Below are positions 32,330 through 59,848 of a stretch of 64,000 nt of DNA, in pieces. Position 1 is the first letter of the stretch. Every line of letters begins with the position of its first letter. The notes beneath the pieces were generated by a model. That model made no database searches. It had not been told where the DNA came from and saw nothing but the letters and a program-made list of their open reading frames with translations. A program made the translations under genes and the position numbers. The stretch comes from Candidatus Latescibacterota bacterium (GTDB lineage Bacteria > Latescibacterota > UBA2968), in contig OZ242320.1 in assembly GCA_965208125.1 (NCBI GenBank), positions 1,472,001-1,536,000 of the forward strand, in the 5' to 3' direction.

Positions 32330-32358
32330 ATCGGACTGTCGAAATATGCTCGACCTCC

Positions 32359-32391
32359 AAAAAGGGCTGACCGCTGGTCAGCCCTTTTTTT
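32359..32391 (+). terminator. Intrinsic terminator after groEL
   Basis: AAAAAGGGCTGACC-gct-GGTCAGCCCTTTTTTT. Confidence 0.9.
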
Positions 32392-32478
32392 GTGTGTTTG
32401 GTTGAATTTGTGGGCAGTTTTATCTATATTATCAAAGACTTAAACCAAATTTGAGCTAACCATTTGCGAAAGGAAATT

Positions 32479-33651: not shown

Positions 33652-33670
33652 GATATACCCGCCAATATCG

Positions 33671-33705
33671 AAAGCCCCGTCTGACAAAGGTCAAACGGGG
33701 CTTTT
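33671..33705. terminator. Probable bidirectional terminator
   Basis: AAAGCCCCGT.TGAC / GTCA.ACGGGGCTTTT between convergent genes. Confidence 0.75.
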
Positions 33706-33716
33706 ACTTTTTTTTA

Positions 33717-35705: not shown

Positions 35706-35854
35706 AGTGTTTTCGAGGAATGGGCTTTTGAAGCAACCCCAAATTTTCTTGTATTTAAAAATTTGTCATGTAATTTTGCGATTAAACAACGCTAATATAG
35801 TCACACAGAGCGGCGATAAGCCACAAAAATTTAATACAATAACGGGCAAACCTT

Positions 35855-35886
35855 CTGGATCGCGGCTAAAACCATGCCGCGATGAC
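35855..35886 (-). repeat. GTCAT-type REP-like palindrome
   Basis: Reverse complement reads GTCATCGCGGC-atggtttta-GCCGCGATCCAG; only one copy seen. Confidence 0.5.
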
Positions 35887-35917
35887 GGCTTTATTGATAT
35901 CGTTGGAACATCTCTAT

Positions 35918-37414: not shown

Positions 37415-37425
37415 GGAGCATCGCG

Positions 37426-40422: not shown

Positions 40423-40440
40423 AGCTAAAAGGAGAACAAA

Positions 40441-42858
40441 ATGGTACGCATGACCGATACCACAGACCTGCAGCATCCACACCTTCCCAACACGGAAAAC
40501 GAAATGAGTCGCCGTTATCTGCGGATGATCGAACAGTGGATTCCAACCGGCATCGCGTACTTTGCCGACTGGCCCGACCGCCCCAACTGTGGGCATTTCT
40601 TCGGCGGATGCCACTGGTACGGAATCGAAACCATCAGCTGTGCCGAAACCTTTGCCTACGCCAGTACGTCTCCAGAATACGACGAGACATCCACGGGCGT
40701 ATCCCGCGACGCCCTGCGGGAAATGGCGATCAAAAGCGTGCGCTACCTCTGTTTCACACACGACTCTGGTCCCGAAGACTGCGTACGTCCACAAGAAGGA
40801 CTGGGCCGCTCGGAAAACTGCGGCACCAAATGGGGCGAGCGGGGCAAAGGCTTCTTCCGCGAAAGCCAATGCGGCAGCACCGTCGCTGGCCTGGCGCGCA
40901 TCTGTTTGCTACTGCGAGAATGGATCGATCGAGAAACCTATATGATGGTCGCCCGCGTACACGAAGACTACGCCGCACGGTTCGGAAACATGGCACCCAA
41001 AAGCGGCGTCTATACAGACACACAAATGGAAGAAAACGCCTGGACCTCTCACGGGCTCACCTCTTGTTTCCTCTTCCTATCCGAACACGCGGACGCCGCA
41101 GCCTGGGAAGCAACCGCCCGCAGATGGATGTTCTCCACATGCGCCGCGCCGCAAGACACCAAAGACCTCGGCCTCGTAGGCGGCGAAACCGCGCGAACCC
41201 TAACCGAAAAAATCTTCACAGCACTCCCCGATTACCTCGCGGAAAACCACGGCATGGTCCACCCCAGCTACACGGCATCCGGCCTCTCCCCCCTGATGAG
41301 CGCAGGCTGTCTGCATCAACTCTGGGGACGCGAACTACCCCCAGAACTCTTCTGGAACAAACGGCGCGTGTACGAAAACCTGAAAGCTCTCACCGACGGA
41401 GGCGGATATGCCCAGGCTGTTCAGGGAATGGACTGGCATTATCTGAACATATTCGCAACCATTTCCGCGCACGCGATTGCCGCCGTATTCTTCGACGACG
41501 CGGACGCCGCAGCCCTGGAACACCTGGGACTGGAACATGCCGAACTACGTCAGCGCGGAAATGGGGGCCGGATGTACGACCAGGACCTCGCCCAGAAAGC
41601 ACACGACCAGCAGGACCCCATGATCATGCGCGAAGTCACCATCTCGGGCGCCGCTGGCCTGTACCTCCTCCATCGCCTCTTTGGACCAGGCCCATCGCCC
41701 TCACCCACCGCAGAAATGGAATCGCGTCTCTCGGGCGTACGCCACTTCCCCCACGCGGGATTTGTACACCACAGACACCCGCACGGACAAACCTCATTTG
41801 CCTGGCGCAACTCAATCATGGCCCTGCCCCTCACGCGGGAAGGTATCTACACCATCGCCCCCTGTTCAGACACCTGGCTCGGCACACCCATCGTACAAAA
41901 CCGCCCCGACAGCCACCGCCTCAAAACCGTGCGCGTAGCTGAACACGACGACAGCTTTGCCGCCGCCCTGGTAATAGACCGCTGCCAGGAATCCCTGCGG
42001 CAACACGTACTCTTTGCCAGCCTGCCAGACGGCCGCATCCTATCTTTTGAAAAATTCACCGCCCAGGAAGACCTCGTACTGGAAGAACTCAACCAGGGAT
42101 TTTTGCGCATCACCAACGAACACTTCTCACACCTGGCCCCCAACTGCCGCGGCGAACGCGTACTATATCACCCCAACGGCGAAACCCGGTACGCGGGCTG
42201 GCACGGCGAATCAGAATCCGATGACATAATCGACAACCTGAGCCATCCCACCTATCTCAACATAGACAACCGCCTGGGCATACACTTTACCGGAAATGGC
42301 GACACAATCTATCACAACCGGCACTACTTCAACCCCTACCGCGCCATAGCCGACGACCTCACACTATCCCGACTATCGGGCGAAAAACCCCTTCGTGCGG
42401 GCGAAGAAGCGGGGCGCTTAACAGCCCTGTTAATCCCCGAACAAACCGCCGCCGACACACCCGATACCCCCTTCGAAATTCTGACCGCACCAGAAGACGG
42501 TGTTGGCCTCATAGCCGAAGGATATCTCGCCGCCGCAAACTTCGGCACCGCGCAACAAATATGCACTTTCACCGCAAACAGAACCGAACAGTTGTCAGTC
42601 TTTCCCGGCGCCATCCTCGAAACGCATGGAAACCGCGCACGCTACCGCATCCCCATCGGCGGCGAATCTGCCTGCCTTCTCCGCGCGACCCGAATACTGA
42701 ACATAGAAGGCGATGCGCGGATAGACGCCATCCCCGACGGCGCACTATACGTCTCCAATTCCGAACATGCAGAAGTGAAAATCGCAGGGGAAGACGGAAC
42801 GCACACCATTGGCCGCGGAGAAACCAGACGAATAGACGAACCCCGCCCTACCACCTGA
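40441..42858 (+). CDS. Hypothetical cytoplasmic protein, possibly alpha-toroid plus beta-sandwich lyase-like
   Basis: 805-aa ORF with local codon bias; DTQMEENAW and ENHGMVHPSY motifs. The function is inference only. Confidence 0.6.
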   Translation: MVRMTDTTDLQHPHLPNTENEMSRRYLRMIEQWIPTGIAYFADWPDRPNCGHFFGGCHWYGIETISCAETFAYASTSPEYDETSTGVSRDALREMAIKSVRYLCFTHDSGPEDCVRPQEGLGRSENCGTKWGERGKGFFRESQCGSTVAGLARICLLLREWIDRETYMMVARVHEDYAARFGNMAPKSGVYTDTQMEENAWTSHGLTSCFLFLSEHADAAAWEATARRWMFSTCAAPQDTKDLGLVGGETARTLTEKIFTALPDYLAENHGMVHPSYTASGLSPLMSAGCLHQLWGRELPPELFWNKRRVYENLKALTDGGGYAQAVQGMDWHYLNIFATISAHAIAAVFFDDADAAALEHLGLEHAELRQRGNGGRMYDQDLAQKAHDQQDPMIMREVTISGAAGLYLLHRLFGPGPSPSPTAEMESRLSGVRHFPHAGFVHHRHPHGQTSFAWRNSIMALPLTREGIYTIAPCSDTWLGTPIVQNRPDSHRLKTVRVAEHDDSFAAALVIDRCQESLRQHVLFASLPDGRILSFEKFTAQEDLVLEELNQGFLRITNEHFSHLAPNCRGERVLYHPNGETRYAGWHGESESDDIIDNLSHPTYLNIDNRLGIHFTGNGDTIYHNRHYFNPYRAIADDLTLSRLSGEKPLRAGEEAGRLTALLIPEQTAADTPDTPFEILTAPEDGVGLIAEGYLAAANFGTAQQICTFTANRTEQLSVFPGAILETHGNRARYRIPIGGESACLLRATRILNIEGDARIDAIPDGALYVSNSEHAEVKIAGEDGTHTIGRGETRRIDEPRPTT

Positions 42859-42859
42859 C

Positions 42860-42914
42860 GGGCGGGCACAGGGGCACCGCCCCTACATCGATCCGCTGAC
42901 CGCTGACCACTAAC
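42860..42914 (-). repeat. GTAG-type REP variant plus heptamer run
   Basis: GGGCGGGCACAGGGGCACCGCCCCTAC followed by ccgctga ccgctga ccactaa. Confidence 0.75.
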
Positions 42915-42930
42915 TACGGAGACTTGAAGG

Positions 42931-43701
42931 ATGAACAAAATAACCATCTCCCCCCGCTACTACCGCTGGCACGTTGACAAAGGCGTAGTCTGGGTCGAAA
43001 AGAACACGAGCTATGCCTACCTCAACTGGAAAATCCCACTCGCGCAAACCGCACTCGTACTCGTCGATATCTGGTCGCATCACTACCTGAAAGACACCGC
43101 AACTCGATCCGAGGAAATCGTACGCAACAACATCGTCCCCCTCCTGAACGCCTGTCGAAAAGCTGAAATGCCCATCGTTCACGCGCCAGCGCCGCGTCTG
43201 GCTGAAGCGCATCCATCCTGGGTGAACCTGATCGAAAAGGGAGAAACATCCACCGAATCCAAAAACAACTGGCCCCCAGCCGAATTTCGCAGCAAAACGG
43301 GAATTTATGAACACTATGCGCGGCCCATAGAACCGCGCGAAGAAGAACTCACTGAAATCCGCGCCAGACTCGAAATGCATCCCCAGGTACAGGTAGAAGG
43401 CAAAGAAGCCGTCATCTCCACAGGCGAAGAACTCCACCGCTGGTGCAAACAACGCGGCATACTCTTCCTCTTCTATCTCGGCTTCAACACCAACGCCTGC
43501 ATCTTGATGAGAGACTACGGAACCCTCGCAATGGGTCGCCGCGGGTATGAAATCATCCTCCTGCGGGACTGCACCACGGGAATGGAATCTTTTGAAACGC
43601 ACGAAAGCCTCGGACAGACGCGGGGAGCCGTACTCTTCCTGGAAATGTTCGGACACTATTCTCTGACATCAAAGGAACTAATCGCGGGATTGCCGGAGTA
43701 A
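42931..43701 (+). CDS. Isochorismatase-family cysteine hydrolase
   Basis: TALVLVDIW, MPIVHAP, GFNTNACIL, LLRDCT. Confidence 0.82.
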   Translation: MNKITISPRYYRWHVDKGVVWVEKNTSYAYLNWKIPLAQTALVLVDIWSHHYLKDTATRSEEIVRNNIVPLLNACRKAEMPIVHAPAPRLAEAHPSWVNLIEKGETSTESKNNWPPAEFRSKTGIYEHYARPIEPREEELTEIRARLEMHPQVQVEGKEAVISTGEELHRWCKQRGILFLFYLGFNTNACILMRDYGTLAMGRRGYEIILLRDCTTGMESFETHESLGQTRGAVLFLEMFGHYSLTSKELIAGLPE

Positions 43702-43704
43702 AAC

Positions 43705-45201
43705 ATGCTATCACTCGCAGACTTCATCGTCATCCTCCTCTACGCCCTGATCATGGCCTGGATCGGCGGGATTGCCAAACGAAAATCTCAGGACATAGAC
43801 GCGTACTTCGCCGCCGGACACAACCTGCCCTGGTGGATGGCAGCCATATCCCATCACGTCTCCGGATACAGCGCCGTCGTCTTCGTGGGCTTTGCAGGAC
43901 GAGCAGCAACCGCCGGATTCAGCATGTGGACCCTATTCTCCCTATCGTGTTTTATCGCCATGATGATCGGCTCCCTCGTCTGGGCACCGCGCTGGTCTCG
44001 CCTCAAAGTACTCACACCCGTAGAATATCTCGAAACGCGATACGGAAACTCCGTGCGTTTTCTGGTCGCACTCTCCGGCATCGGCGTCAAATTCATAGAC
44101 CTCGGCATCAAACTCTACGCAATCTCCGTCGTCGTACAAACCGTCACGGGCTGGGCCGTATTACCCGTCGTACTGGTCGCAGGCATAATCACCGTGGCTT
44201 ACGTCCTCATAGGCGGACTGTGGGCCGCGGTATTAACCGACCTGATCCAATTTGTCGTCCAGCTCGTCATCAGCTCAATCGTACTCTATCTCGTACTCGA
44301 CAACATCGGCGGATGGAACCCTCTGTGGGAACAATTGCCCGCCGAACGCGGCGCATTCTTCAACGCAGAAGCCGGCATTGGAACCGACTTCTGGTTTGTC
44401 TATCTAATCGTCGTCATCTTCAGTTATAACGGTGCCACCTGGGGATTGGCGCAGCGATTCATATCCGTATCCGACCCGCGAGACACCCAAAAAGCCGCGC
44501 TCCTCTCGGGATTCCTCTACCTGCTATACCCCATCGTAATCTTCCTGCCCGCCTGGGCTGCGCCCTTATTACTCACCGAATATTTCGATCCCATAACGCT
44601 CGCGCCCCTGCCCGGCTTTGATCCCCAGCAAACCTACGTATTAATGGCCCAACACATGCTCTCCGGACTAATGCCCGGATTGATCGGCCTATTGATCTGT
44701 TCCATGTTCGCCGCCACCATGTCCATGATCGACAGCGACCTCAACGCGCTTGCCGCCGTATTCACAAAAGATATTTATCAGCGCAACATCAAGCGCGAAT
44801 GGACACAGCAGACACTCTTCCGCATCGGAAAAATCGTCACATTGATCTTTGGAATAGCCATCATCATCACAGGCATTATCATCACTGAAAGCAAAGGAGC
44901 GGAAAAAGTATTCACCGCAACTGTTCAGGTATTTGGGGCACTCCTATCCCCCATCGCAATACCGCTCATGTTCGGCATGCTCTTTCGAAAACCCACAGCG
45001 CGGGGTGCGATATTGGCTCTCGCAGGCGGACTGTTGACCTACGCCATCCTCGTACAAATAACGGACAACTTCGCCATTTATACCGGAGGCGAAATCCTCG
45101 TCGGTTTGTGCTTGTATTTCGGCGAAGGATGGATCGGAACGCGCACCCCGGAAAAAGAACGGGAAGTAAAAAATCTGTTTGACAAATTGACATCCCAATA
45201 G
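43705..45201 (+). CDS. Sodium:solute symporter (SSS family)
   Basis: YFAAGHNLPWW, EYLETRY, GGLWAAVLTDLIQ, AQRF, FAATMS..DSDLNA. Confidence 0.92.
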   Translation: MLSLADFIVILLYALIMAWIGGIAKRKSQDIDAYFAAGHNLPWWMAAISHHVSGYSAVVFVGFAGRAATAGFSMWTLFSLSCFIAMMIGSLVWAPRWSRLKVLTPVEYLETRYGNSVRFLVALSGIGVKFIDLGIKLYAISVVVQTVTGWAVLPVVLVAGIITVAYVLIGGLWAAVLTDLIQFVVQLVISSIVLYLVLDNIGGWNPLWEQLPAERGAFFNAEAGIGTDFWFVYLIVVIFSYNGATWGLAQRFISVSDPRDTQKAALLSGFLYLLYPIVIFLPAWAAPLLLTEYFDPITLAPLPGFDPQQTYVLMAQHMLSGLMPGLIGLLICSMFAATMSMIDSDLNALAAVFTKDIYQRNIKREWTQQTLFRIGKIVTLIFGIAIIITGIIITESKGAEKVFTATVQVFGALLSPIAIPLMFGMLFRKPTARGAILALAGGLLTYAILVQITDNFAIYTGGEILVGLCLYFGEGWIGTRTPEKEREVKNLFDKLTSQ

Positions 45202-45258
45202 CGCGAAACGGGATTTGAGATTTTTTTTACAAAAATTTACAATGGCATCAAAAAAGGC

Positions 45259-45288
45259 TTGACATGTCTATATCAATGGGGCTATCAT
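45259..45288 (+). promoter_or_regulatory. Sigma70-like promoter of the outer-membrane module
   Basis: TTGACA-18 nt-TATCAT in an AT-rich gap. Confidence 0.6.
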
Positions 45289-45475
45289 GGCATATAACTT
45301 GTTGTTTTTTTAAGTATTGTTAAGTTTTATTTTATCCTACTATTAAAACCTCTAAACAAAGAAATGAGGTGAGGCCAATGCACTGAATAATCCAGGTTCA
45401 CATATTTAGTATCTCGTCAAACGTTTAACAGAAGAATTGCATCACCGCAGTTTTAAGCTGTAGAAAGGAGAGTTT

Positions 45476-46189
45476 ATGACACGCACCTTAGCTACTTTCC
45501 TGGTGAGTGTATTACTGGTACTTGCATCGGGTGATTTGTTTGCCCAGCAGAATGGATGGGGTCTTGGTGGATTTGCCAATTACCACGTACCCCTGTCCAA
45601 TTTGCGGGACCGCTACGATCAGGCGGGGAAATACGGCATAAACGTGAACTATGTGGCCAGCGACCTCGTGACCGTTGAAGTGGAATATCACTATTCCAAA
45701 TTCGACAGCGGAAAACTCGCGTCCAAACCGTTTGTATATCCGATTGACGGCCTTGAATACACCAGCCCCAACGCTTCATCGACAATGACCTTCAACAGCG
45801 TGGCCGTAAACGCGCTCGTCTTTGTAGGCGAAGAAAATCGGCAACACGGATTTCGGGCAAAAGACTATCGCCATTACATAGCCCTCGGCGGTGGTTTTTT
45901 CCGTTATAACGCCGAAAATAGCAATCTGGTATGGCCGGCTCAAACCAGCGATCCAATTGACTTAAATACCGTAATGGATCCGCAAATCGACAAACGCACC
46001 ACCATAGCACTCACCACGGGTGCGGGCATGGAGGCATTTGTCACCGACAATATCAGCCTGGATGTACGCGGGCGCTTAAACTTCGTAGTGGGCGAATTGA
46101 GACCCATGCTCTTTTACGACCTGGAACGCGCTCGTCCGTTAATGTTTTTCGATATAGGTGCCGGGGTTAAGTTTTATTTCTGGCGTTAA
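45476..46189 (+). CDS. Small outer-membrane beta-barrel (OmpA/OmpW-like transmembrane domain)
   Basis: Signal peptide (LFA/Q), about 8 amphipathic strands, ends GVKFYFWR. AAAGGAG RBS. Confidence 0.75.
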   Translation: MTRTLATFLVSVLLVLASGDLFAQQNGWGLGGFANYHVPLSNLRDRYDQAGKYGINVNYVASDLVTVEVEYHYSKFDSGKLASKPFVYPIDGLEYTSPNASSTMTFNSVAVNALVFVGEENRQHGFRAKDYRHYIALGGGFFRYNAENSNLVWPAQTSDPIDLNTVMDPQIDKRTTIALTTGAGMEAFVTDNISLDVRGRLNFVVGELRPMLFYDLERARPLMFFDIGAGVKFYFWR

Positions 46190-46217
46190 ACCATTCACCC
46201 TTTAAGGAGGTCGTGCT

Positions 46218-49200
46218 ATGAAGCACAGACTGTTGTTTTTCAGTTTGATAGCCGTCGGTTTCCTATTTGCAGGAACCGGCGACCTGTGGGCGGGCAGCAC
46301 GGGTAAGATCAACGGAGTCGTTAAAGATGCCAACGGGCAGCCACTGCCGGGTGCCAACGTAGTCATCAGAGGCACTCAGCGCGGCGCTGTCACCGATGCC
46401 GATGGATACTACGCAATTATCCAGGCAGACCCGGGGCGCGTCACCCTCACCGGCTCTCTCGTCGGTTATGAGACCGTTCTGGTACAAGACGTCCTGATCA
46501 TCGCCGATCAGACCGTCACTGTGAATTTCTCGCTCAAAGAAGCCGCTGTAGAACTCGGCGAACTGATCGTCGTTGCCGATCGTCCACTCGTGGAACCGGA
46601 CAAAACCACGAGTAAATACACCGTAACCGTCGAAGAAACCGAACGCCTTTTGAGCATCGTGCGCAACACATCCGAGCTTTTGCAATTGCAGCCCGGCGTG
46701 GCAGTAGATGGTAGCAACCGCTTGCGCGGCAGCCGAGTCGGCGGCCCCGGATCCGGTTACAGCGATGTTGTATGGGGCAGCGACGTGGCTTATATGGTCG
46801 ATGGCATACGGATAAACTACAACGATGGCCGCGGTGCTGGCGGACAATTCCGAACCGTGAACCGCGGAGCGATCCAGGAATTGTCAGTGCTCACCGGTGT
46901 AACACCCGCCGAGTTTGGCAATGCACAGGCCGGTGTGGTACAAATCGTGACAAAAGACGGTGGCAATCAGTACAATGGCTGGGGCGAATTTCGCTATGAG
47001 CCTGCCGGGCAAAAGCACTGGGGCATGAATGTCTATGACGCTCCCCAACATCAGGACAAAATGCAGTGGGACAATCCCAACTGGCTGACGGAACGGCGTC
47101 CCGATCTGGGTTTGGACAACCAGACACTGACAGAATTGGCTGGCGAACCCCTGCATATTCGAGAGGACTACACAGAGGTCAGCGGTTGGGATGTAGAGGC
47201 AAATCTCTCGGGTCCCATTGGCACCAATGTCTCCTTTGTCGCCACGGCAAAACACGGCCGTTTAGCCAATCGCTATCCGGGATCCAAGCAGACGGGATTT
47301 TACAACGACCTCAACAGATTTATCCCCACGGGTCCAGACAACCTGACGCTTTCCGGTAGTTTCACCTTCAGGCCAAGCCCAAATCTGAAACTCAAACTGG
47401 GCGGGCTTTACCAGGGATATGAATACTGGTCAGACGGCGTGGCCGATCCCTATATCCGCACGGCAGATTCGCTTCCGGGCTTGCATCGGGGGCTGGGCAA
47501 CGGCGGTAGAGATCTGTTTTTGCCGCCAGATTGGTCGGGGGCTGGAAAACGCATGGAACGCGAAGAGATGCAATATCTGGTCGTGACCCACACACTCTCG
47601 CCCAAAACATTTTACGAAGTGCGCGTGTCGCGCAGCCGCTCATTAACAGATACCAGCGGCGTATATCACGCAACATCGGTCAACAACAGGGGCGAAGCCA
47701 ACTGGTTTAACACCGGGCGAACAGCCGCCCGCTGGAAAGTGGCCGACCGCAACCGCCTGGGCCTGAAGGTCGATTTGACTTCTCAGGTAACAAAGGGCCA
47801 CCTGCTCAAGGGCGGTATCGAATTTATGCGCCGGGACATCATGATGATGATCATCGCCAATGCCACCCCTGCGGATCGACATCTGATGTTTGTGGCAAAT
47901 GAGGGTCGGTTCGGAGACGACGGCGTCAAGCCGTATTCCATCAATACCTATGTGCAGGACAAGATGGAATTTGAGGGCATGATCGTGAACCTGGGATTGC
48001 GCATGGATGCTTTCAATCCCAATGCTCGCAGAATAACGCACGGTAGTGCCCGCGGTTCCGAAATGTTCCGCAGACCCAATCTGGCGCGAGATTACGCCTA
48101 TAATGAAGGATCGATCTGGTCAACACAAGCCCCCTGGCACGTGGTATTTAGCCCCCGAATCGGGATTTCGCATCCCATCACCGAACGGGCGCAGTTCCGG
48201 TTCTCGTCGGGTGTTTACCTGCAATGGGCCGACCTGTGGTTCTACTTTGGCGAAGACTTCTGGGTAGCGGGCAAAGCCGAAGACAGAGATGTCAACGGCA
48301 ACGGCCGCATCGACGACACAGAGCGCTACAACAACCTCGAAACCACTTATAGCGGTCGAAATGGCACGCACCTGTTGCGCCCCGCCAAAACCACCGCATT
48401 TGAAGTGGGTGCAGACTGGAACTTTGTCTCGGACTATACCATCGCACTAACGGCTTATTATCGCTCTGAGGTCGAGCAATTCACCCACTATCCCAACGAA
48501 ACCTGGCAGGGACCGTTCATCAGTCGCGTTCGCTATTCCCGCACCCTGGACAACGGTGCTTATGGGGATACGCGGGGCGTGGAACTCGCATTGCGCAAGC
48601 GGTTCAGCCACAACTTCTCGTTCAATTTGTCCTACAACTACCAGTGGGCGTCATTTACCACGGGCAAGCGCGGCAACGTGATACGCAACATCTACATGGA
48701 TGAGGAAGGTGTCAGAAAAGCTGCCGTCAACATCGCCTATACGCATCCCGAATTCGGCGTACCGGTTCCCGATTTGTGGGTAGAATGGGATCCCCACTCC
48801 TCGGGCAGCGAAGTGCCCAGACTGATGTCGCAGGAAGACATCGACCTGATTGCTGGGCAGGCCAACAATCGATACGAGGCCGCTACTGTGAATCAGGCTT
48901 ATGGCAAGACCCTGGGCACGGGCGAATGGGATGGCCTGCGCCCCCTCGAGGGACCGACCAAAGGCAAGGGCATTTACCTGCTCACCGGCGGTTATACCCA
49001 GCTATTCCTGAAACCGCGCGGGGGAGATCGAAGGCAATTTGGAACCGCCTCAATGCTGGCTTCCTTCCCGGCCGATTACGAACGGGGCGGAGCCATCGTC
49101 AGCAGAGTATTGCGCAACATGCGCATCAACCTGGTCACGCGGGTTGAAACGGGAGGATTGTTCCGCTATGCCCCGCCAGAAGGTGGCGTGCGGCCCTACC

Positions 49201-49472
49201 GCGAACTGGCTATGGACTCTCGCACAGACCTGGCATTGGAAAGGACCTTTGCCATGACGTCCAGAGTTCAAGCTTCGCTCTTCCTGGATATACGCAATAT
49301 GTTCAACCAGAAAGACCGAACAAGCCCGACCAACAGGAATGACTATACCTACTACGGGGTTGACGGACCCCGACCAACCGACAGCACCTACCTGCAATAC
49401 GGAGACGTGCGCGATCGCACTTACGCGCACACACCCAGGTTGACCCAGGTAGGCGTGCGATTTAACTGGTAG
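46218..49472 (+). CDS. TonB-dependent receptor with N-terminal carboxypeptidase-regulatory-like domain
   Basis: TGKINGVVKD..GQPLPGANV, LQPGV, YMVDG, AEFGNAQAGVVQIVTKDG plug motif, YVQDKME, SPRIGISHPIT, ends GVRFNW. Confidence 0.9.
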   Translation: MKHRLLFFSLIAVGFLFAGTGDLWAGSTGKINGVVKDANGQPLPGANVVIRGTQRGAVTDADGYYAIIQADPGRVTLTGSLVGYETVLVQDVLIIADQTVTVNFSLKEAAVELGELIVVADRPLVEPDKTTSKYTVTVEETERLLSIVRNTSELLQLQPGVAVDGSNRLRGSRVGGPGSGYSDVVWGSDVAYMVDGIRINYNDGRGAGGQFRTVNRGAIQELSVLTGVTPAEFGNAQAGVVQIVTKDGGNQYNGWGEFRYEPAGQKHWGMNVYDAPQHQDKMQWDNPNWLTERRPDLGLDNQTLTELAGEPLHIREDYTEVSGWDVEANLSGPIGTNVSFVATAKHGRLANRYPGSKQTGFYNDLNRFIPTGPDNLTLSGSFTFRPSPNLKLKLGGLYQGYEYWSDGVADPYIRTADSLPGLHRGLGNGGRDLFLPPDWSGAGKRMEREEMQYLVVTHTLSPKTFYEVRVSRSRSLTDTSGVYHATSVNNRGEANWFNTGRTAARWKVADRNRLGLKVDLTSQVTKGHLLKGGIEFMRRDIMMMIIANATPADRHLMFVANEGRFGDDGVKPYSINTYVQDKMEFEGMIVNLGLRMDAFNPNARRITHGSARGSEMFRRPNLARDYAYNEGSIWSTQAPWHVVFSPRIGISHPITERAQFRFSSGVYLQWADLWFYFGEDFWVAGKAEDRDVNGNGRIDDTERYNNLETTYSGRNGTHLLRPAKTTAFEVGADWNFVSDYTIALTAYYRSEVEQFTHYPNETWQGPFISRVRYSRTLDNGAYGDTRGVELALRKRFSHNFSFNLSYNYQWASFTTGKRGNVIRNIYMDEEGVRKAAVNIAYTHPEFGVPVPDLWVEWDPHSSGSEVPRLMSQEDIDLIAGQANNRYEAATVNQAYGKTLGTGEWDGLRPLEGPTKGKGIYLLTGGYTQLFLKPRGGDRRQFGTASMLASFPADYERGGAIVSRVLRNMRINLVTRVETGGLFRYAPPEGGVRPYRELAMDSRTDLALERTFAMTSRVQASLFLDIRNMFNQKDRTSPTNRNDYTYYGVDGPRPTDSTYLQYGDVRDRTYAHTPRLTQVGVRFNW

Positions 49473-49473
49473 C

Positions 49474-49515
49474 GGGTTGTGCGAGTGGGCTACAAGACCC
49501 ACTCGCATACCCTTT
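49474..49515 (+). terminator. Strong intercistronic hairpin (weak terminator or mRNA stabiliser)
   Basis: GGGT.GTGCGAGTGGG / CCCACTCGCATACCC followed by only three T. Confidence 0.6.
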
Positions 49516-49547
49516 CCGAAACCCATTGAAGGAGGGCGAGGAACAAT

Positions 49548-51980
49548 ATGACGCGATTTAAAATTTTTACAGGATGGGTCGCAATATGCGCCGCGGTGGG
49601 AGCTATTATAGCTACCGATGCCACAGCGCAATTCGACCCGAACATAATCCCTTTCAGGGAAAACACCAGGGCATTGATCTCCAATTCCTGGAACAACATG
49701 GGCATCCAGGGAGGCAGCCCCGAAATTAACCGCGGCGGCGACCGAAATGCCTATCCCCACAATGGCGTGGGACCGGGTTCCTTCGGACAGGTGTTGTCCC
49801 AATTCACAAGCGGACCAAAATCCCAAGTCTATAACGACTACAAAACCTCAATGGGCGATGGTTTGTGGATTTTGACATCCGACGGACAAATCAGTTTGAC
49901 CGGGCCACGACCTTCGCCGTGGATCAGGGATTTTATTCGTCCATTGCCCTATGATCCCAAAGGCAACGAAGAAGAACACTGGGGCGTCCCCAACCCACTG
50001 CGGACACTCGGAGATGCCTCAAACGTACTTGCCACTTCGGGCGGCTGGAGCGGCGGTGGATCAGAACCGTGGCTGTCCAATTACTGGCCCGGTGTAACAC
50101 AGGCAGATTTCGGAAGCTATTACGGGACCGAGTTAGATCCCTCCAAAACCAGTCCCCTGGTCATTGGAAACTACAATCTGAGTGGCTATATCGTCGATCT
50201 GTCGCTCCCCGAAGAAACCATCATCACCCGCTGGGTACACATCAAACAGGGTATTCAGGTAACGCGGCGGGTCTATAATTGGAGCCACCCGGACTTTGAC
50301 GATTTTTATCTCGTAGATTTGACATTCACCAACACGGGTGATTTCGACGGGGATGGGCAGGAAGACAATCCCGGCGGCACAGCCACGCAGTACGATATCT
50401 ATTTTTCGTTTGTAAACTCTTGGGTGTCCGCAGCAATGGGCGTTATGCAAGCATTTGGCTGGGATGGTTATGTGACGTCGGGTGGTCGCGGTGTGGATGA
50501 TATTTATTTTTATTCCGATGCGAGCAACTACGCGGGTGCGTTTGACCCCGGGTATAAAGCCAGCATTTTCCGCGATTCCGACAACCCATTGTCGCCATAC
50601 GACGACACGGGCGACCCGTATTTCAAACGACTGGGCCATACCGATTCGGATGCGGTTGATGCAACCGAAGGCCAGCTTCGCGCACCGCAACACATCGTGA
50701 TGGCACCCATCGCGTTTACCGATGCACCGGGGCTACACGCCTTTAACACCCGGGACATGGGCAAATACGTCCAGCCACAGGGCGACCAGCCCTTCTCGGC
50801 GCAGTGGTGGCAGGCGCGGTCCAAAGACGACTTTGACGATCCCTATACGGAAAAAGACACCGAATCCCAGATGTATGGTGAGATGCTAAAAGGGGGAACC
50901 AAAGACAACCCGAACGAGAACAATGTAGATGACCGAAAATTTTACATTTTCTCGCAAGTCTATGGTCCGTACACGCTTCAGGCAGGCGAAAGTGCCAAGA
51001 TCGTGATGGCTTATGTCGCCGGTCACCCGGCTCAGATAAAGAACCAGGATATACTGACCTGGGACCGTTCGGATGTGCCGGTAGAAACAAAGATCCAGGA
51101 ATTCAAAACCCTGGGCGAGCAAGCGGCATTTGAGAATTTGCAACTCGCGCACTTTATTTACGATTCCAATTTCCACCATCCACCGGCACCGACGAACGCA
51201 TTTATCGCCGCCGATGACCTGACTTCCAGCGGATTTGCCCGCCAACAGATTTCGTGGATCGACGATGCCGACCGCGCGGTCAATCCCTACACCGGACAAC
51301 AGGACATCGCGGGCTACCGCGTCTATCGCTCCACCTGGTTCGGATGGGGTCCCTGGAAATTGCACGACACCGTACTAAAAGGGCAAAGCGGTTCCAGCCT
51401 CAACGGCCAGTGGTCGCTCGCTGGCGGCAAGTACACCTATGAAGATCTGGATACGGCCGCCGGGTTTGCATATCACTACTCGGTGCGACCCTACAACAGC
51501 GGATATAGCGACTGGATGGGCAGCGGAATGACAATCGCGGATTTGCCGACAGGCAGGGCGCGCGCCAATGCTACGGGTGGGTACGAGAGCGGTTGGGGAC
51601 CTGCCACTGCGCGCACCTACGACGCCGATGACAGACGGCCCTTCCAGCCGACCACTACCGAAACCGATCAGCTCGACCGAAAAGTAACGGTGGTGCCAAA
51701 TCCCTATTTCGTGGATGGCAAGCACCAATATCCCAGAAGCCGAAATCTGCGCTTTGTGGGGATTCCCCAAAAGTGCAAAATCCACATCTTTTCGGCTTCT
51801 GGCGACAGGGTCTATACCGTCACGCACGATAATCCAGACCGGGGCGAAGCCTCGTTTCGGCAGGTGACGTACAATCTGGCTGGCGAAATCCAGACCGGAC
51901 TGTACTACTTCGTCGTCGTATCCGAAACCCCGGGCAGCGAAAACAAGATCCAGCGCGGTACTTTTGTGGTGATTAAGTAG
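49548..51980 (+). CDS. Secreted protein with T9SS-like C-terminal sorting domain
   Basis: Signal peptide, Fn3-like IAGYRVYRS, and CTD KVTVVPNPY...KIHIFSASGDRV...TGLYYFVV...GTFVVIK. Confidence 0.78.
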   Translation: MTRFKIFTGWVAICAAVGAIIATDATAQFDPNIIPFRENTRALISNSWNNMGIQGGSPEINRGGDRNAYPHNGVGPGSFGQVLSQFTSGPKSQVYNDYKTSMGDGLWILTSDGQISLTGPRPSPWIRDFIRPLPYDPKGNEEEHWGVPNPLRTLGDASNVLATSGGWSGGGSEPWLSNYWPGVTQADFGSYYGTELDPSKTSPLVIGNYNLSGYIVDLSLPEETIITRWVHIKQGIQVTRRVYNWSHPDFDDFYLVDLTFTNTGDFDGDGQEDNPGGTATQYDIYFSFVNSWVSAAMGVMQAFGWDGYVTSGGRGVDDIYFYSDASNYAGAFDPGYKASIFRDSDNPLSPYDDTGDPYFKRLGHTDSDAVDATEGQLRAPQHIVMAPIAFTDAPGLHAFNTRDMGKYVQPQGDQPFSAQWWQARSKDDFDDPYTEKDTESQMYGEMLKGGTKDNPNENNVDDRKFYIFSQVYGPYTLQAGESAKIVMAYVAGHPAQIKNQDILTWDRSDVPVETKIQEFKTLGEQAAFENLQLAHFIYDSNFHHPPAPTNAFIAADDLTSSGFARQQISWIDDADRAVNPYTGQQDIAGYRVYRSTWFGWGPWKLHDTVLKGQSGSSLNGQWSLAGGKYTYEDLDTAAGFAYHYSVRPYNSGYSDWMGSGMTIADLPTGRARANATGGYESGWGPATARTYDADDRRPFQPTTTETDQLDRKVTVVPNPYFVDGKHQYPRSRNLRFVGIPQKCKIHIFSASGDRVYTVTHDNPDRGEASFRQVTYNLAGEIQTGLYYFVVVSETPGSENKIQRGTFVVIK

Positions 51981-51998
51981 CCGAAGGAGGTATTCATT

Positions 51999-52997
51999 GT
52001 GAAACAGAAAAATCTCATACTTACAGCGTTCCTGAGCCTGCTGCTGATCGCCAGTCCCGCTCTGGGGCTTGAATATGAAGGCGTAACCGCGATCGAAGGG
52101 GTCAAGAAAGTCAACATCGCAGGCATGCAGTTTTTGAAAATTGGACAGGGTGCTCGTGCCGTGGGGATGGGTGATTCATACACGGCAATTGCCGATGATA
52201 TCAACGCCATCTTCTGGAACGGCGCCGGGCTGACCCATGTGGAAAGGTTCGCCTATCAGGCCAATTACACCAAATGGCTGGCAGGCACAGAACTGTATTC
52301 GGCGGCAGCCGTCTTCAACACCCACTCGTCTCGGGGTGAAGTTCTGGGTATCAGCCTGATTACACAGCAGGTCGAACCCATCGAAGAAACCACCATCTTC
52401 CAGCCGAGTGGAACGGGTCAATTTGTCGATGTGAACTACATGGCGGTGGGCTTGCTCTACGCCATAAAATTCACAGATAAATTCTCGTTCAGCGCCAAAG
52501 CCAACTATGTGCAGGAAAAGCTCTACACGCAAAGGACCAGTACATTTACCATAGACCTGGGCAGCCATTTCTATACCGGGTTTAGAAGCCTGCGCGTGGC
52601 CATGTCGTTCAAGAACTTCGGCCCAGACCAGAAATCCAGGGAAGAGGCATTCTCCTACCTGATGCCCCTGACTTACAACATGGGCCTGGCCGCCGAAGTC
52701 TATGGCGAAAAAGGCGATCCGACCTATTTGACGCTGGCAGCCGAGAGCGTATTCCCCGTAGATTTCGAGCAACGCTATCACTTTGGAGCCGAACTCTGGG
52801 TCCAGAACATGGTAGCTGTGCGCGCGGGCTATAAGTGGAATTACGACCTCGAGTCCTTTGCCTTTGGCGCTGGCGTCAAGCAGACAGTGGGTGGGCGTAC
52901 CTTCGTGGTAGATGTGTCCTATTCGCTGCTGAAGGATATTGACGGCGTGGCACTATTCGACTCGCCGCTACGCATATCAATAGGTGGCACGTTCTAA
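51999..52997 (+). CDS. PorV/PorQ-family (UPF0164) outer-membrane protein
   Basis: FLKIGQGARAVGMG...AIADDINAIFWNGAGL, VRAGY, ends ISIGGTF. Confidence 0.88.
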   Translation: MKQKNLILTAFLSLLLIASPALGLEYEGVTAIEGVKKVNIAGMQFLKIGQGARAVGMGDSYTAIADDINAIFWNGAGLTHVERFAYQANYTKWLAGTELYSAAAVFNTHSSRGEVLGISLITQQVEPIEETTIFQPSGTGQFVDVNYMAVGLLYAIKFTDKFSFSAKANYVQEKLYTQRTSTFTIDLGSHFYTGFRSLRVAMSFKNFGPDQKSREEAFSYLMPLTYNMGLAAEVYGEKGDPTYLTLAAESVFPVDFEQRYHFGAELWVQNMVAVRAGYKWNYDLESFAFGAGVKQTVGGRTFVVDVSYSLLKDIDGVALFDSPLRISIGGTF

Positions 52998-53044: not shown

Positions 53045-53083
53045 AGGGCGACTGCCGGGGTTGCACCCTGGCAATCGCCCTTT
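53045..53083 (+). terminator. Hairpin downstream of the porV-like gene
   Basis: AGGGCGA.TGCCGGG / CCCTGGCA.TCGCCCT followed by TT. Confidence 0.55.
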
Positions 53084-53099
53084 GTATTCTGTGCAAAAA

Positions 53100-54944
53100 A
53101 TGCCTACAAATCAACGCGAGAAAACCTGGCCTCTCGTCGCGGTGGGATTGGCTGCCTTTCTGGTATTCGCAAACAGTCTCGGCAACGGATTGGTCTATGA
53201 CGATCACTTTCTGATCGAACGCAACCGATTGCTTCGCGAAGCCGATGTGTGGGGCATTTTAACCACGCATTACTGGGCCGGATACGAGGGTGAAGCCAAC
53301 GTCAACGGGCAATATCGCCCCCTCACAGTCCTGTCTTTTATGCTGGATGGTCTGGGAGGGATTTGGCCCTTTCGATTTCACCTGACCAATACAATCCTGC
53401 ATGGGGTCAACAGCCTCCTCGCCTATCTCCTCTGCCTGAGTCTGGGACTAAAACGGGGCGCAATCCTATCCGCATTGTTATTTGCCGTACATCCCATCCA
53501 TGCCGAAGTCGTCGCTGGCATAACATTTGGGCGCGCAGATCTATTGACAGGCCTGTTTTCTCTATCAGCCCTGCTCCTGTACATCCTCTGGCACAACCGG
53601 AGCGCGGAAAAGTACTACGGATTGGCCCTCGTGGGATTCTTTCTCGCCTTGCTCTCCAAAGAAAGCGCGATAACCGTACTTGGCCTGATCATCGCCGTCG
53701 ATTTGACCCTGTCCCGCGGGAATGGGATACGCAATCTCCTGTGGCAACGCAGCGCGCGCTGGGCTGGCTTCATCGGGATTTTTGTCCTCTATCTAACCAT
53801 GCGAAAAGTCGCTGCGGGCCTGGGATTCTCAGCCGAAAATATACTCGCTCTCAACAACCCACTCATAGACCAGCCCCTCGACCACAGACTCCTGACAGCC
53901 GCCGGACTCTTTTGGAAATACTGCATTCTCATTTTGTTTCCCATCAAATTATCCGTAGATTACTCTTATAATGCCATACCCGTCATCACCTCTATACTCA
54001 CACCCGAAGCAATAGCGGGCATACTCCTCGGCATCGCGGGACTATTATTGTGGGCAGGTGCTTTTTACAAGCACTGGCCCTGCGTATTTTTTGCTCTATC
54101 ATTATTCTTTGTACCCTATTCAGCCGTATCACAAACACTCGTCCTCATCAACGCCATTTTTCAGGAGCGATTTTTATACATCCCAGTTCTCGGTTTATTC
54201 ACGCTGTGTGGCCTGGGATTTGAACACCTTGAAAAACACCGCAAAACAGTCGCCATTGCCCTCGCCGCCCTCATCCTCATGGCCTATAGTGCCCGAACAA
54301 TTGTCCGAAACGCGGACTGGCGAGACGACTTAACACTTTATCAGAGTGCAGCAACAGCATACCCCAAAAGCGCGAAAATGCAACACGCTCTGGGCGACGC
54401 CCTATCCGAACGCGGCAGAATGTCCGAAGCGGAAACAGCTTACAGAAATGCCCTATCAGTGCGAGAAAATGCCCTCACCTATAACAACCTGGGAAATCTC
54501 TATGCCGCAACAGCCCGTTTTAAAAACGCAACAGCCGCGTATCAAAAAGCAGTGGAAATAGAACCGCATTACGTCGAAGCCTATATGAACAAAGGACTCG
54601 CAGCAATGCAGGCCGGGCAAATAACCGACGCGCATTCGGCCTTTGAACGAGCCGCGGTTCTCAACCCAACCAGCGCAGAAATCTTCTACAACCTGGGCGT
54701 GGTCCGCGAAAAATTGGCCCAGCCCGCACAGGCAACAACAGCTTATGCCCGCGCCATCGCATTGCGCCCAGATTGGGCTGAAGCGTATTTCAACCTGGGA
54801 AAAGCCCATCGGGACAACGGCGAAAAAATCGCAGCCATACAGGCGTACACGCGCTTTATAGAACTCTGGCGGGGAGACCCGCAAGTCGCGCAACTGGCAC
54901 GCCGTGAATTGGAAATGCTCAATGAAAAACCCCTTGCCCGATAG
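53100..54944 (+). CDS. TMTC-like GT-C membrane glycosyltransferase with TPR repeats
   Basis: YDD, YRPLT, FHLTN, LFAVHPIHAEVV..GRADL, LLSKE, LSVDYS, ERFLY, RNADW, then TPRs. Confidence 0.85.
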   Translation: MPTNQREKTWPLVAVGLAAFLVFANSLGNGLVYDDHFLIERNRLLREADVWGILTTHYWAGYEGEANVNGQYRPLTVLSFMLDGLGGIWPFRFHLTNTILHGVNSLLAYLLCLSLGLKRGAILSALLFAVHPIHAEVVAGITFGRADLLTGLFSLSALLLYILWHNRSAEKYYGLALVGFFLALLSKESAITVLGLIIAVDLTLSRGNGIRNLLWQRSARWAGFIGIFVLYLTMRKVAAGLGFSAENILALNNPLIDQPLDHRLLTAAGLFWKYCILILFPIKLSVDYSYNAIPVITSILTPEAIAGILLGIAGLLLWAGAFYKHWPCVFFALSLFFVPYSAVSQTLVLINAIFQERFLYIPVLGLFTLCGLGFEHLEKHRKTVAIALAALILMAYSARTIVRNADWRDDLTLYQSAATAYPKSAKMQHALGDALSERGRMSEAETAYRNALSVRENALTYNNLGNLYAATARFKNATAAYQKAVEIEPHYVEAYMNKGLAAMQAGQITDAHSAFERAAVLNPTSAEIFYNLGVVREKLAQPAQATTAYARAIALRPDWAEAYFNLGKAHRDNGEKIAAIQAYTRFIELWRGDPQVAQLARRELEMLNEKPLAR

Positions 54945-56340
54945 TCGTGCCATACGGAAGTTCTTCGACGAAGCTGCCGAAAACCGGGATCGTTGGCGCA
55001 GGCGCAATCGCACCTATCACGAAGAAGTCTTGCGATTTTGCCGCTGCGCTGTGCCCGAAGGATCGTCTGTCCTGGTCATAGGATGCGGCACCGGCGACCT
55101 GCTCGCGGGCCTGAAACCGGGACGGGGACTCGGCATTGACTTCAGCGAAGCAATGATAAAACGCGCGCGCAAAAAATACCCCGACCTGAGATTTCGCGCA
55201 GGACGCGCCGAAAACTTGCCCGAAGGGGAGCGATTCGAATGGATCATCTTATCGGACCTGCTGGGTTTTCTGCCGGACATCCAGCGCGTATTCAGCGAAC
55301 TGTGGAAAGTCGTACTGCCCGGCTCCCGCGTCCTGATCACGCACTACAATCCCCTGTGGAAACCCGTGCTAAAAACCGGAGAAATATTTCGCCTAAAAAT
55401 GCCCGAACCCGTGCAAAACTGGTTGACACACCGGGACATTCAGAATTTACTTTATCTATCGGGCTTTGAAGAAATTCGACGGGAAACCCGTCTGTTTTTG
55501 CCCCGCCGCGTACCCCTTCTCGCGTGGCTTGCCAATCGCCTTTTGGCAAGAGTACCGGGATTGAGACGCCTGTGTCTCATACAAACACTCGTCGCCCGCC
55601 CCGTCTTTCCCGCACGGGAAGCATCCGCAGTCACTTGCTCGGTCATAATACCCTGCAAAAACGAGCGCGGCACAGTGGAAGCGGCAATTGCGCGCACACC
55701 TGCGATGGGAGCGCATACAGAACTAATCTTTGTCGTGGGACATTCAACAGACGGCACTGCCGAAGAAGTCGAGCGATGCATGGCGGCATATAGCGGAACA
55801 GACATCCGCCTGATCCGGCAAACCGGAACGGGCAAAGGGGACGCCGTACGACAGGGATTTGACGCAGCCAGAGGCGATATATTGATAATCCTGGACGGCG
55901 ACCTGACCGTCGCCCCAGAGGAACTGCCCAAATTCTTCGACGCCCTCGTATCCGGCCGCGCCGACCTCGCAGTGGGATCCCGCCTCGTATATCCCATGGA
56001 ACAACAGGCCATGCGATTTCTGAACCTTCTGGGCAACCGATTTTTCGGCTGGGTATTGAGTTGCCTCCTGGGGCAACGCATTCTGGACACCCTGTGCGGC
56101 ACCAAAGTCCTGTTTGCCTCGGACTACAAAAAATTGACCAGAGCGCGTCGAGACGTATGTGACTTCGATCCCTTTGGCGACTTTGATCTCCTCCTCGGCG
56201 CGTCCAAACTCGTTCGCAAAATAGTAGAAGTACCCGTGCGCTATCGGGATCGGGTGTACGGAAAAACGCAGATCCACCGCTTTCGGCACGGCTTTTTGCT
56301 ATTGCGCGTTTGCTGGACTGCTTTTCGCAAGCTGCATTGA
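54922..56340 (+). CDS. SAM methyltransferase-GT2 glycosyltransferase fusion
   Basis: VIGCGTG..GIDFS SAM motif, then SVIIPCKNE, STDGT, GKGDAV, LDGD, DTLCGTK (DPM-synthase-like). Confidence 0.88.
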   Translation: MKNPLPDSRAIRKFFDEAAENRDRWRRRNRTYHEEVLRFCRCAVPEGSSVLVIGCGTGDLLAGLKPGRGLGIDFSEAMIKRARKKYPDLRFRAGRAENLPEGERFEWIILSDLLGFLPDIQRVFSELWKVVLPGSRVLITHYNPLWKPVLKTGEIFRLKMPEPVQNWLTHRDIQNLLYLSGFEEIRRETRLFLPRRVPLLAWLANRLLARVPGLRRLCLIQTLVARPVFPAREASAVTCSVIIPCKNERGTVEAAIARTPAMGAHTELIFVVGHSTDGTAEEVERCMAAYSGTDIRLIRQTGTGKGDAVRQGFDAARGDILIILDGDLTVAPEELPKFFDALVSGRADLAVGSRLVYPMEQQAMRFLNLLGNRFFGWVLSCLLGQRILDTLCGTKVLFASDYKKLTRARRDVCDFDPFGDFDLLLGASKLVRKIVEVPVRYRDRVYGKTQIHRFRHGFLLLRVCWTAFRKLH

Positions 56341-56367
56341 ACGGTGTATCCTTTCAGGAGACATACC

Positions 56368-59841: not shown

Positions 59842-59848
59842 GACAATT

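Follow-up and report, generated by a model that had tools for sequence, protein, structure and literature searches.

We analyzed a 64,000-nucleotide (nt) stretch of the genome of a Candidatus Latescibacterota bacterium (GenBank assembly GCA_965208125.1, contig OZ242320.1, positions 1,472,001 to 1,536,000 of the forward strand), referred to here as the window, and focused on a cassette of four genes for outer-membrane and secreted proteins within it. The four open reading frames (ORFs) span positions 45476-52997, all on the plus strand, and are separated by gaps of 28, 75, and 18 nt. They encode a small outer-membrane protein (OMP), a TonB-dependent transporter (TBDT), an 810-amino acid (aa) secreted protein that ends in a C-terminal domain (CTD) resembling those of type IX secretion system (T9SS) cargo, and a PorV/PorQ-family barrel. 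A sequence-only reading of the window had proposed this content: four co-oriented genes for a small beta-barrel, a TonB-dependent receptor, an 810-aa protein ending in VVPNPY...GLYY...FVVIK, and, directly after it, a PorV/PorQ-family protein, with no SusD lipoprotein. The evidence below bears out each of these assignments. Our results favor a model in which the cassette is a duplicated nutrient-uptake unit whose 810-aa protein would dock through its CTD on the adjacent barrel and act as a partner of the receptor. The features are as follows.

45259..45288, plus strand: promoter-like sequence TTGACA-18 nt-TATCAT, 11 of 12 matches, in the 274-nt AT-rich gap before P0001
45368..45382, plus strand: conserved motif GGTGAGNCCNATGCA, in the 5' leader of about 185 nt (45289-45475)
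45476..46189, plus strand: P0001, small outer-membrane beta-barrel protein, 237 aa; weak match to PF13505 (OMP_b-brl), with family support
46218..49472, plus strand: P0002, TBDT, 1084 aa; CarboxypepD_reg-like and Plug domains, fold from an AlphaFold2 model
46308-46571, plus strand: CarboxypepD_reg-like N-terminal domain of P0002 (aa 31-118), 72.5 bits
46605-46937, plus strand: Plug domain of P0002 (aa 130-240), 33.4 bits against a cut-off of 23.9
49548..51980, plus strand: P0003, secreted protein of a new family, 810 aa, without a Pfam or NCBIfam family
N-terminus of P0003, plus strand: signal peptide, ending ATAQ before F, read by eye
49626-51182, plus strand: beta-rich N-terminal region of P0003 (aa 27-545), ending in a long helix (aa 512-539), from the AlphaFold2 model
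51210-51527, plus strand: FN3-like domain of P0003 (about aa 555-660), from the AlphaFold2 model and Foldseek, followed by a linker
51678..51977, plus strand: divergent T9SS-type CTD of P0003 (aa 711-810), a beta-sandwich with motifs VVPNPY, SGD, GLYYFVV, and GTFVVIK
51999..52997, plus strand: P0004, PorV/PorQ-family outer-membrane barrel, 332 aa, GTG start; NF033709, 159.8 bits

Conservation and duplication of the cassette

We compared the window with the best 80 of 225 encoded relatives of the 810-aa family (one genome per species), fetched together with their loci. Sixty-four of these loci are labeled Latescibacterota and 15 Gemmatimonadota; 12 (L001-L012) are orthologues of the window cassette, with middle proteins 84-99% identical to P0003. 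Among the loci whose contig leaves room for the neighboring gene, the gene immediately before that of the P0003 relative encodes a P0002 relative in 72 of 72, and the gene immediately after it encodes a P0004 relative in 78 of 78. The gaps between cassette genes are mostly below 110 nt, and in a Handelsmanbacteria record two of the genes carry the adjacent locus tags A3F84_25275 and A3F84_25280. Because of these synteny counts, the arrangement stands far above chance, and the expectation that the triad of receptor, CTD protein, and barrel would prove conserved is upheld. The cassette is also present in several copies per genome, with five of the 80 loci on one complete chromosome and seven in one fragmented metagenome-assembled genome. 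We conclude that the cassette is a real, conserved functional unit.

The three core genes of the cassette have duplicated together. When the 70 loci with full-length genes and the window were grouped at a 45% identity cut, the middle proteins formed eight paralogue groups, and the receptors gave an identical partition (adjusted Rand index 1.0). Each group of middle proteins corresponds to one group of PorV-like proteins, with two groups sharing one, and no cross-pairing occurs in the 71 cassettes. Pairwise distances between cassette genes are correlated, with Pearson coefficients of 0.95-0.98.

The loci also show cassettes in other states. L058 carries a second, more distant tandem cassette (5316-12588) with a 982-aa receptor, a 1067-aa middle protein, and a 349-aa PorV-like barrel; this middle protein has the CTD and part of the N-terminal region in common with the P0003 family. 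The small OMP and receptor of another cassette lie on the opposite strand in L039 (1-3825, minus strand). Some cassettes look decayed: the receptor of L059 (5645-9905) is split by a DDE transposase gene (7764-8888, minus strand), the middle gene of L042 (9887-12294) is broken into two ORFs, and so is the PorV-like gene of L072 (12195-13180). Further transposase genes lie beside the cassettes of L038, L044, L053, and L061.

The receptor and the small outer-membrane protein

Both a CarboxypepD_reg domain and a Plug domain were found in all 23 members of the P0002 family examined, whereas the Pfam barrel model TonB_dep_Rec_b-barrel (PF00593) matched only 1 of the 23, and the C-terminal residues of P0002, about 820 in number, matched no Pfam or PDB sequence model. 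Searched alone against solved structures, the P0002 sequence matched only the 85-residue N-terminal domain of SusC, and the family profile matched only Plug and N-terminal parts in the PDB. Since these searches were uninformative on the barrel, the fold was checked through an AlphaFold2 model built with 23 relatives (pLDDT 79.4, pTM 0.75). The top Foldseek matches of this model among those shown are all TBDTs (Cir, PirA, PqqU, FusA, YddB, SusC BT2261-64, and FhuA), with E-values down to 7.9e-25 and TM-scores, normalized to the target, of 0.45-0.73. Thus, P0002 is a TBDT with a divergent barrel, as judged from its Plug domain and the predicted fold of its barrel.

P0002 does not, by its profile score, qualify as a SusC/RagA protein. 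It reached 84.8 bits with TIGR04056 against a cut-off of 368.25, and the match covers only positions 2-207 of the 981 in the profile. No SusD-family protein was found among the 41 ORFs of the window or among 68 ORFs flanking the cassettes of seven paralogous loci.

P0001 has a signal peptide and matches OMP_b-brl at 21.7 bits, below the cut-off of 28.7. This match is weak when taken alone, but 16 of 20 family members match the same model at E ≤ 0.1 (best 1.1e-7), and the closest Atlas clusters are outer-membrane beta-barrel proteins. The only PDB match of the family profile was at chance level (E = 0.0049, an unrelated designed protein). Of 71 loci with room, 61 have a P0001 relative ahead of the receptor, or 62 counting L059; the remaining nine have none, even by family hidden Markov model at E ≤ 1e-3. 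P0001 is an optional accessory of the cassette.

The 810-aa protein

P0003 matches no Pfam or NCBIfam family at E ≤ 0.01, and its 56 word-sharing relatives are all annotated as hypothetical or without a name, none with a precomputed Pfam domain. The family is large: an exhaustive search returned 580 representatives at E ≤ 1e-3, 163 at 1e-10, and 45 at 1e-30. An AlphaFold2 model from 35 sequences (pLDDT 84.4, pTM 0.87) is mostly beta. In the PDB, the best Foldseek match of the model is PorZ (5m11; E = 7.8e-7 over 121 columns), followed by FN3 domains. The N-terminal region gave only weak and partial matches (TM-score about 0.2), to beta-sandwich parts of phosphorylases and hydrolases of glycoside hydrolase (GH) families GH94, GH116, and GH149, and therefore is not assignable to a solved fold. 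It lies near Atlas clusters from Rhodothermota, Bacteroidota, and Calditrichota (0.95-0.96), which we take as a lead only; distant relatives of 600-700 aa occur in these three phyla. Between paralogue groups, conservation is slightly higher in the CTD (39%) and the FN3-like domain (38%) than in the N-terminal region (32%).

The protein differs from SusD/RagB proteins, which are alpha-helical, TPR-like lipoproteins with a lipobox. P0003 has no match to that family, is mostly beta in its model, and lacks a conserved cysteine at the signal peptide. Lipobox-like motifs occur in 10 of 78 N-termini of the family, where they sit inside the hydrophobic core or in over-extended ORF starts; no lipobox cysteine is conserved, and the family alignment shows a cleavage site of the A-x-A-Q type. 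Without a lipobox, P0003 is not expected to be a lipoprotein and would need another anchor.

The C-terminal domain

The translation of P0003 ends in ...KVTVVPNPYFV...TGLYYFVVV...RGTFVVIK. DSSP assigned seven strands to aa 714-809 of the model, and by this predicted fold the domain is a compact Ig-like beta-sandwich, as are the solved T9SS CTDs. We infer that the PorZ match belongs to the CTD. At the level of the family, T9SS-specific models recur. Among 41 family CTDs searched at E ≤ 0.1, the Pfam matches were to CHU_C (PF13585; 32 domains, best 2.3e-6), Por_Secre_tail (PF18962; 16, best 6.6e-3), and FlgD_ig (11), and the NCBIfam matches were to the type A model TIGR04183 (27, best 2.9e-4), the PorZ model (19, best 1.3e-7), a T9SS-dependent M6-like protease (14), PorU (6), and the type B model TIGR04131 (1).

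The domain is not confined to the P0003 family. The same CTD forms the very end of unrelated proteins 586-1497 aa long, among them one with RCC1 repeats and one with HYDIN-like Ig domains, and 10 of 19 such proteins scanned have sub-threshold matches to the same three Pfam families. When the CTD was used by itself as the query of a word-based search, the 35 proteins recovered all belonged to the P0003 family, which left the search uninformative about other cargo. We read the domain, from its sequence relatives, as a divergent member of the T9SS CTD superfamily that would act as a modular C-terminal tag. It is not certified as either type: it occupies the extreme C-terminal position of type A domains while falling below the type A cut-off, and an assignment to type B with a PorP/SprF partner fails, given 1 of 41 matches to TIGR04131 and an adjacent barrel of the PorV/PorQ family.

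FlgD_ig-type C-terminal domains above the Pfam cut-off occur in three tandem proteins of 640-660 aa just after the cassette of L066 (13239-19421) and in one 293-aa protein of L050 (3769-4647). Those genomes thus also appear to use a more canonical CTD-like tag. ORFs of the size of SprA (at least 1400 aa) were absent from the 80 loci, bar one spurious antisense ORF.

The PorV-like barrel and its predicted docking

P0004 scored 159.8 bits with NF033709, the PorV/PorQ family model, against a cut-off of 90, and fell below the equivalog cut-offs for PorV (NF033710; 61.2 versus 250), PorQ (NF033711; 61.3 versus 220), and PorV2 (NF052325; 53.2 versus 325). A profile of 28 relatives of P0004 matched a single PDB entry at E ≤ 1, the Flavobacterium johnsoniae PorV (6h3i_F; E = 6.5e-17), and no PorP/SprF family match is listed for the cassette barrel at E ≤ 0.01. 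By these profile scores, P0004 is a member of the PorV/PorQ family.

We modeled a complex of P0004 (aa 24-332, 28-row alignment) with the CTD of P0003 (aa 700-810, 35-row alignment) in three runs alongside three controls. The ipSAE interface scores were 0.91, 0.92, and 0.92, whereas the best control reached 0.00; contacts agreed by at least 83% between runs, and the partner pLDDT was at least 81. In calibration, 116 of 157 solved complexes attained this level, as did 2 of 215 mismatched pairs; these rates are approximate here, where our own alignments were used. The modeled interface involves the conserved motifs of the CTD (aa 714-719, 748-755, 779-791, and 799-810) and, on the barrel, periodically spaced segments together with an N-terminal segment (aa 39-48). 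Since complexes of PorV with its cargo have already been solved, the score shows likeness to such complexes and supports binding without demonstrating it. The suggestion that a private PorV paralogue may tether the CTD protein gains support from the predicted docking (0.92 versus 0.00) as well as from comparative genomics.

Gene neighborhoods

The genes around paralogous cassettes resemble those of polysaccharide utilization loci (PULs). In the seven loci scanned, the flanks encode sulfatases (L035, L038, and L044); a formylglycine-generating enzyme (L050); a PcRGLX-like lyase and a DUF4838 protein (L044); GH4, a xylose-isomerase-like TIM barrel, and an SSS transporter (L061); and GHL10, an arylsulfotransferase-like protein, and a tetratricopeptide repeat (TPR) protein with a GWxTD domain (L053). 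DUF3604 proteins and GFO/IDH/MocA oxidoreductases are also present. In the window, a heparinase II/III-like protein, an isochorismatase-like protein, and an SSS transporter are encoded upstream of the cassette. The composition of these neighborhoods suggests PUL-like loci that act on acidic or sulfated glycans, and it fits the earlier proposal that the cassette may feed the adjacent lyase/SSS cluster.

Membrane proteins of about 660 aa with DUF6785/DUF6784 recur in these regions, twice in the window (33717-35705, minus strand; 62202-63998, plus strand, running off the end) and in three of the seven paralogous loci (L035:21316-22295; L044:2435-4417, minus strand; L061:13473-15446). They could be an inner-membrane partner of the system.

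Other features of the window surround the cassette. Directly downstream (53061-62191) lie genes for a TPR protein with a PMT/TMTC-like region, a methyltransferase-GT2 fusion, and two large proteins with TPR and GWxTD domains; our literature search found no paper mentioning GWxTD. The upstream lyase cluster (35882-42858) encodes the heparinase II/III-like protein (998 aa), an 805-aa protein without any family, and a 510-aa protein whose sole match is a sub-cut-off C-terminal EF-hand pair, possibly dockerin-like. A 509-aa ORF that overlaps in another frame (40413-41942) is probably spurious. Across the SecA-GroEL-lyase region (28000-44000), the plus strand has an AT skew of 0.19-0.34 and the GC skew turns negative, far stronger than in the first 20 kb.

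Promoter region and leader

The sequence-only reading placed all four genes behind one promoter. Conservation favors the site at 45259..45288, where TTGACA is invariant and the -10 hexamer nearly so across 11 of 11 aligned orthologous upstream regions. Site frequency does not: the region holds 7 promoter-like sites compared with 6.7 +/- 2.7 in shuffled sequences, with no enrichment. A single promoter for all four genes is plausible from the conserved hexamers.

The leader contains the motif GGTGAGNCCNATGCA, which is exact in 12 of 12 orthologous loci and in 0 of 68 other loci, and further conserved stretches extend up to the AGGAG ribosome-binding site. This block may serve as a cis-regulatory RNA specific to this cassette, or proteins may bind to it. 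We rejected GGTGAGNCCNATGCA as a regulatory element common to all cassettes, as the 68 other loci lack it and the window contains no more near-matches than chance would give. A search of Rfam gave no match in the whole window at gathering scores and none within 45000-45700 at E ≤ 1, so upstream no riboswitch or other known RNA was found that might have named the substrate.

A model for the cassette and its alternatives

We propose that in Latescibacterota this cassette takes the part that SusC/SusD pairs play in the PULs of Bacteroidota, with another construction. The TBDT would import an oligomer, most likely derived from an acidic or sulfated polysaccharide. The 810-aa protein would be exported with an ordinary signal peptide rather than as a lipoprotein and would presumably reach the cell surface by way of its divergent T9SS-type CTD. 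There the CTD, presumably uncleaved, is predicted to dock non-covalently on the adjacent PorV/PorQ-family barrel, which would hold the 810-aa protein at the surface in a manner likened to that of PorZ on PorQ and of type B cargo on PorP/SprF. The 810-aa protein would then serve the receptor as an extracellular, substrate-capturing partner in the role of a lid, and the small barrel would be an optional accessory. As a whole, a duplicated nutrient-uptake cassette in which the CTD protein, docked on its own PorV-like barrel, captures substrate for the TBDT is our best explanation, with a probability of roughly 0.55.

Several points weigh against this explanation. The CTD of the window, searched as the last 110 residues, lies below every curated cut-off (CHU_C 17.6 and FlgD_ig 17.1 bits, with cut-offs of 27); searched alone, it has no NCBIfam match at E ≤ 0.1, TIGR04183 included, and no Por_Secre_tail match. 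The description of this domain as T9SS-like therefore stands at the level of the 41 family CTDs and of the fold, but not for the curated scores of the window's own copy. No core T9SS gene (SprA/Sov, PorU, or GldKLMN) was found among the 41 window and 68 flanking ORFs, no search of Latescibacterota genomes having been made, and a review (PMC10202324) states that CTD proteins are restricted to Bacteroidota. The score of the modeled complex could stem from resemblance to PorV-cargo structures already solved (6h3i, 8gl6, and others) rather than from this particular pair. The N-terminal region of P0003 has no recognizable carbohydrate-binding fold, with a TM-score of about 0.2 to anything solved. 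The co-diversification that the sequence-only reading anticipated is seen in the identical partition, the lack of cross-pairing, and the Pearson coefficients, but the Spearman coefficients of the same distances are only 0.51-0.71. Moreover, tight linkage alone gives genes a shared history, so that this concordance shows duplication as a unit and not contact. Finally, every locus was found via the middle protein, and the weaker 145 of the 225 relatives were left out.

One alternative keeps the cassette and the tether but makes the 810-aa protein a surface glycan-binding protein or an enzyme, similar to a GH or polysaccharide lyase, that acts upstream of the receptor and forms no lid. The large, beta-sandwich-rich N-terminal region with its weak partial resemblance to three GH families would be compatible with such a role, as would a set of acidic residues invariant over 35 P0003 sequences, including E222, D317, D343, D353, and D403; Bacteroidota utilisomes carry such extra surface proteins beside SusD (PMC11658791). 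Yet the same residues are invariant across paralogues that lie beside very different enzymes, and so a structural or partner-binding role fits them better than substrate-specific catalysis. No catalytic family was matched, and the P0003 family is found only beside a TBDT (72 of 72 loci). We consider this alternative unlikely, though worth keeping in view.

A second alternative concerns the barrel, which would be a transient shuttle: the CTD would be cleaved, the 810-aa protein released or attached otherwise, and the linkage of the genes would reflect co-regulation only. The 27 of 41 family CTDs that match TIGR04183 at E ≤ 0.1 would fit this scheme, as type A CTDs are usually removed by PorU (PMC10202324 and PMC11285876). 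A general shuttle, however, need not duplicate with each cargo, yet each cassette has its own barrel, never cross-paired. The known cognate barrels (PorQ for PorZ, and PorP/SprF for type B cargo) retain the CTD (PMC10202324), and it is to PorZ that the family CTDs have their strongest matches, in sequence (best E = 1.3e-7) and in fold. A transient shuttle is thus improbable. A third alternative, in which P0004 belongs to an unrelated outer-membrane gene cluster as a FadL-type channel that carries some small solute, hydrophobic or amphipathic, and the CTD is an ordinary Ig-like domain, could appeal to the precomputed Pfam labels of P0004 relatives (PF03349, Toluene_X/FadL, and PF03687, beside PF19572) and to the sub-threshold matches of the window CTD, but it is very hard to reconcile with a family profile that matches solved PorV and nothing else in the PDB at E ≤ 1, an NF033709 score above cut-off, the predicted docking of the CTD (0.92 versus 0.00), and T9SS-specific matches that recur across the 41 CTDs.

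If a docked CTD protein does serve as the receptor's partner, the cassette could represent an undescribed class of TonB-dependent utilisome in Latescibacterota, and perhaps in other Fibrobacterota-Chlorobiota-Bacteroidota (FCB) phyla. Its cap would be a CTD protein plugged non-covalently into a dedicated PorV-family barrel, and receptor, cap, barrel, and small OMP would form one complex. The system would have arisen by convergence, as an alternative to SusCD, or would be related to the evolutionary precursor of SusCD. We offer this broader proposal tentatively, with the odds against it. If it is true, PorV-family barrels would also act, outside Bacteroidota, as permanent anchors in the uptake of nutrients.

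Pairs of SusC and SusD are the accepted signature of glycan foraging, and PUL prediction relies on their detection. The Latescibacterota, a widespread and uncultured group, degrade algal and sulfated polysaccharides. A SusD-less cassette, present in several copies per genome beside sulfatases and lyases, would mark PUL-like loci in this phylum, and it would bring in, as a candidate glycan-binding partner, a large protein family without assigned fold or function. The principle of a cognate PorV-like barrel that holds a CTD protein would also reach beyond secretion machinery and adhesins into nutrient import, in a phylum other than the one to which CTD proteins are said to be confined.

Comparison with known systems

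The cassette is made of known parts in an arrangement that we did not find described, in a phylum outside the one in which those parts are studied. Our literature search, which covered titles and abstracts and open papers only, found no description of a cassette of TBDT, CTD protein, and PorV-like barrel, nothing joining Latescibacter with type IX secretion, and nothing joining type IX secretion, a TonB-dependent transporter, a SusD-like protein, and a lid; it did find papers on PorV-like proteins, none of them on receptors. The Caldithrix genome paper has no mention of SusC, SusD, T9SS, or PorV. In a study of Latescibacteria genomes (PMC4454575), non-specific porins were assumed for sugar uptake, and Plug-domain proteins were assigned to B12 and iron. 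Another paper (PMC11285876) allows for a T9SS in other FCB phyla, several of which it lists, Latescibacterota not among them.

One of the closest known systems is the SusC/SusD (RagA/RagB) pair, in which SusD caps SusC within a utilisome (PMC11658791). The two systems have in common a large TBDT with a CarboxypepD_reg-like domain and a Plug domain, an adjoining gene for an extracellular partner (here presumed to be extracellular), and multiple copies per genome among glycan-degrading enzymes and inner-membrane transporters. In contrast to SusC/SusD, the cassette has no SusD-family gene, and its partner protein is beta-rich and without a lipobox rather than an alpha-helical TPR-like lipoprotein. 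Its receptor fails the SusC/RagA cut-off, it includes an additional PorV-like barrel and usually a small OMP, and it occurs in Latescibacterota rather than Bacteroidota.

The predicted anchoring has its closest parallels in PorZ-PorQ and PorU-PorV of Porphyromonas gingivalis, where a CTD protein sits on a PorV-family barrel and PorQ holds PorZ through an uncleaved CTD (PMC10202324). Likewise, the cassette CTDs match PorZ and PorU models, and docking is predicted. However, the P. gingivalis proteins are secretion machinery present once per genome, whereas the pair described here has been duplicated many times, always with a TBDT and in settings of nutrient uptake, and its barrel lies below both the PorV and the PorQ equivalog cut-offs. 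Cargo of type B, such as SprB with SprF, offers another parallel: PorP/SprF proteins are encoded next to their cargo and are proposed as anchors with the CTD retained (PMC10202324), and a cargo gene clustered with its own PorV-like barrel gene is also what we observe. CHU_C, a type B model, is the commonest Pfam match of the cassette CTDs (32 of 41). Nevertheless, the cassette barrel is of the PorV/PorQ family, TIGR04131 is matched by 1 of 41 CTDs compared with 27 of 41 for TIGR04183, and the known type B cargoes are adhesins, not partners of a receptor.

Finally, TBDTs capped by surface lipoproteins other than SusD exist, such as BtuB-BtuG in Bacteroides, and partner folds other than that of SusD are therefore possible. 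In BtuB-BtuG, the partner is a lipoprotein, whereas the cassette described here would rely for anchoring on a CTD docked to its dedicated barrel.

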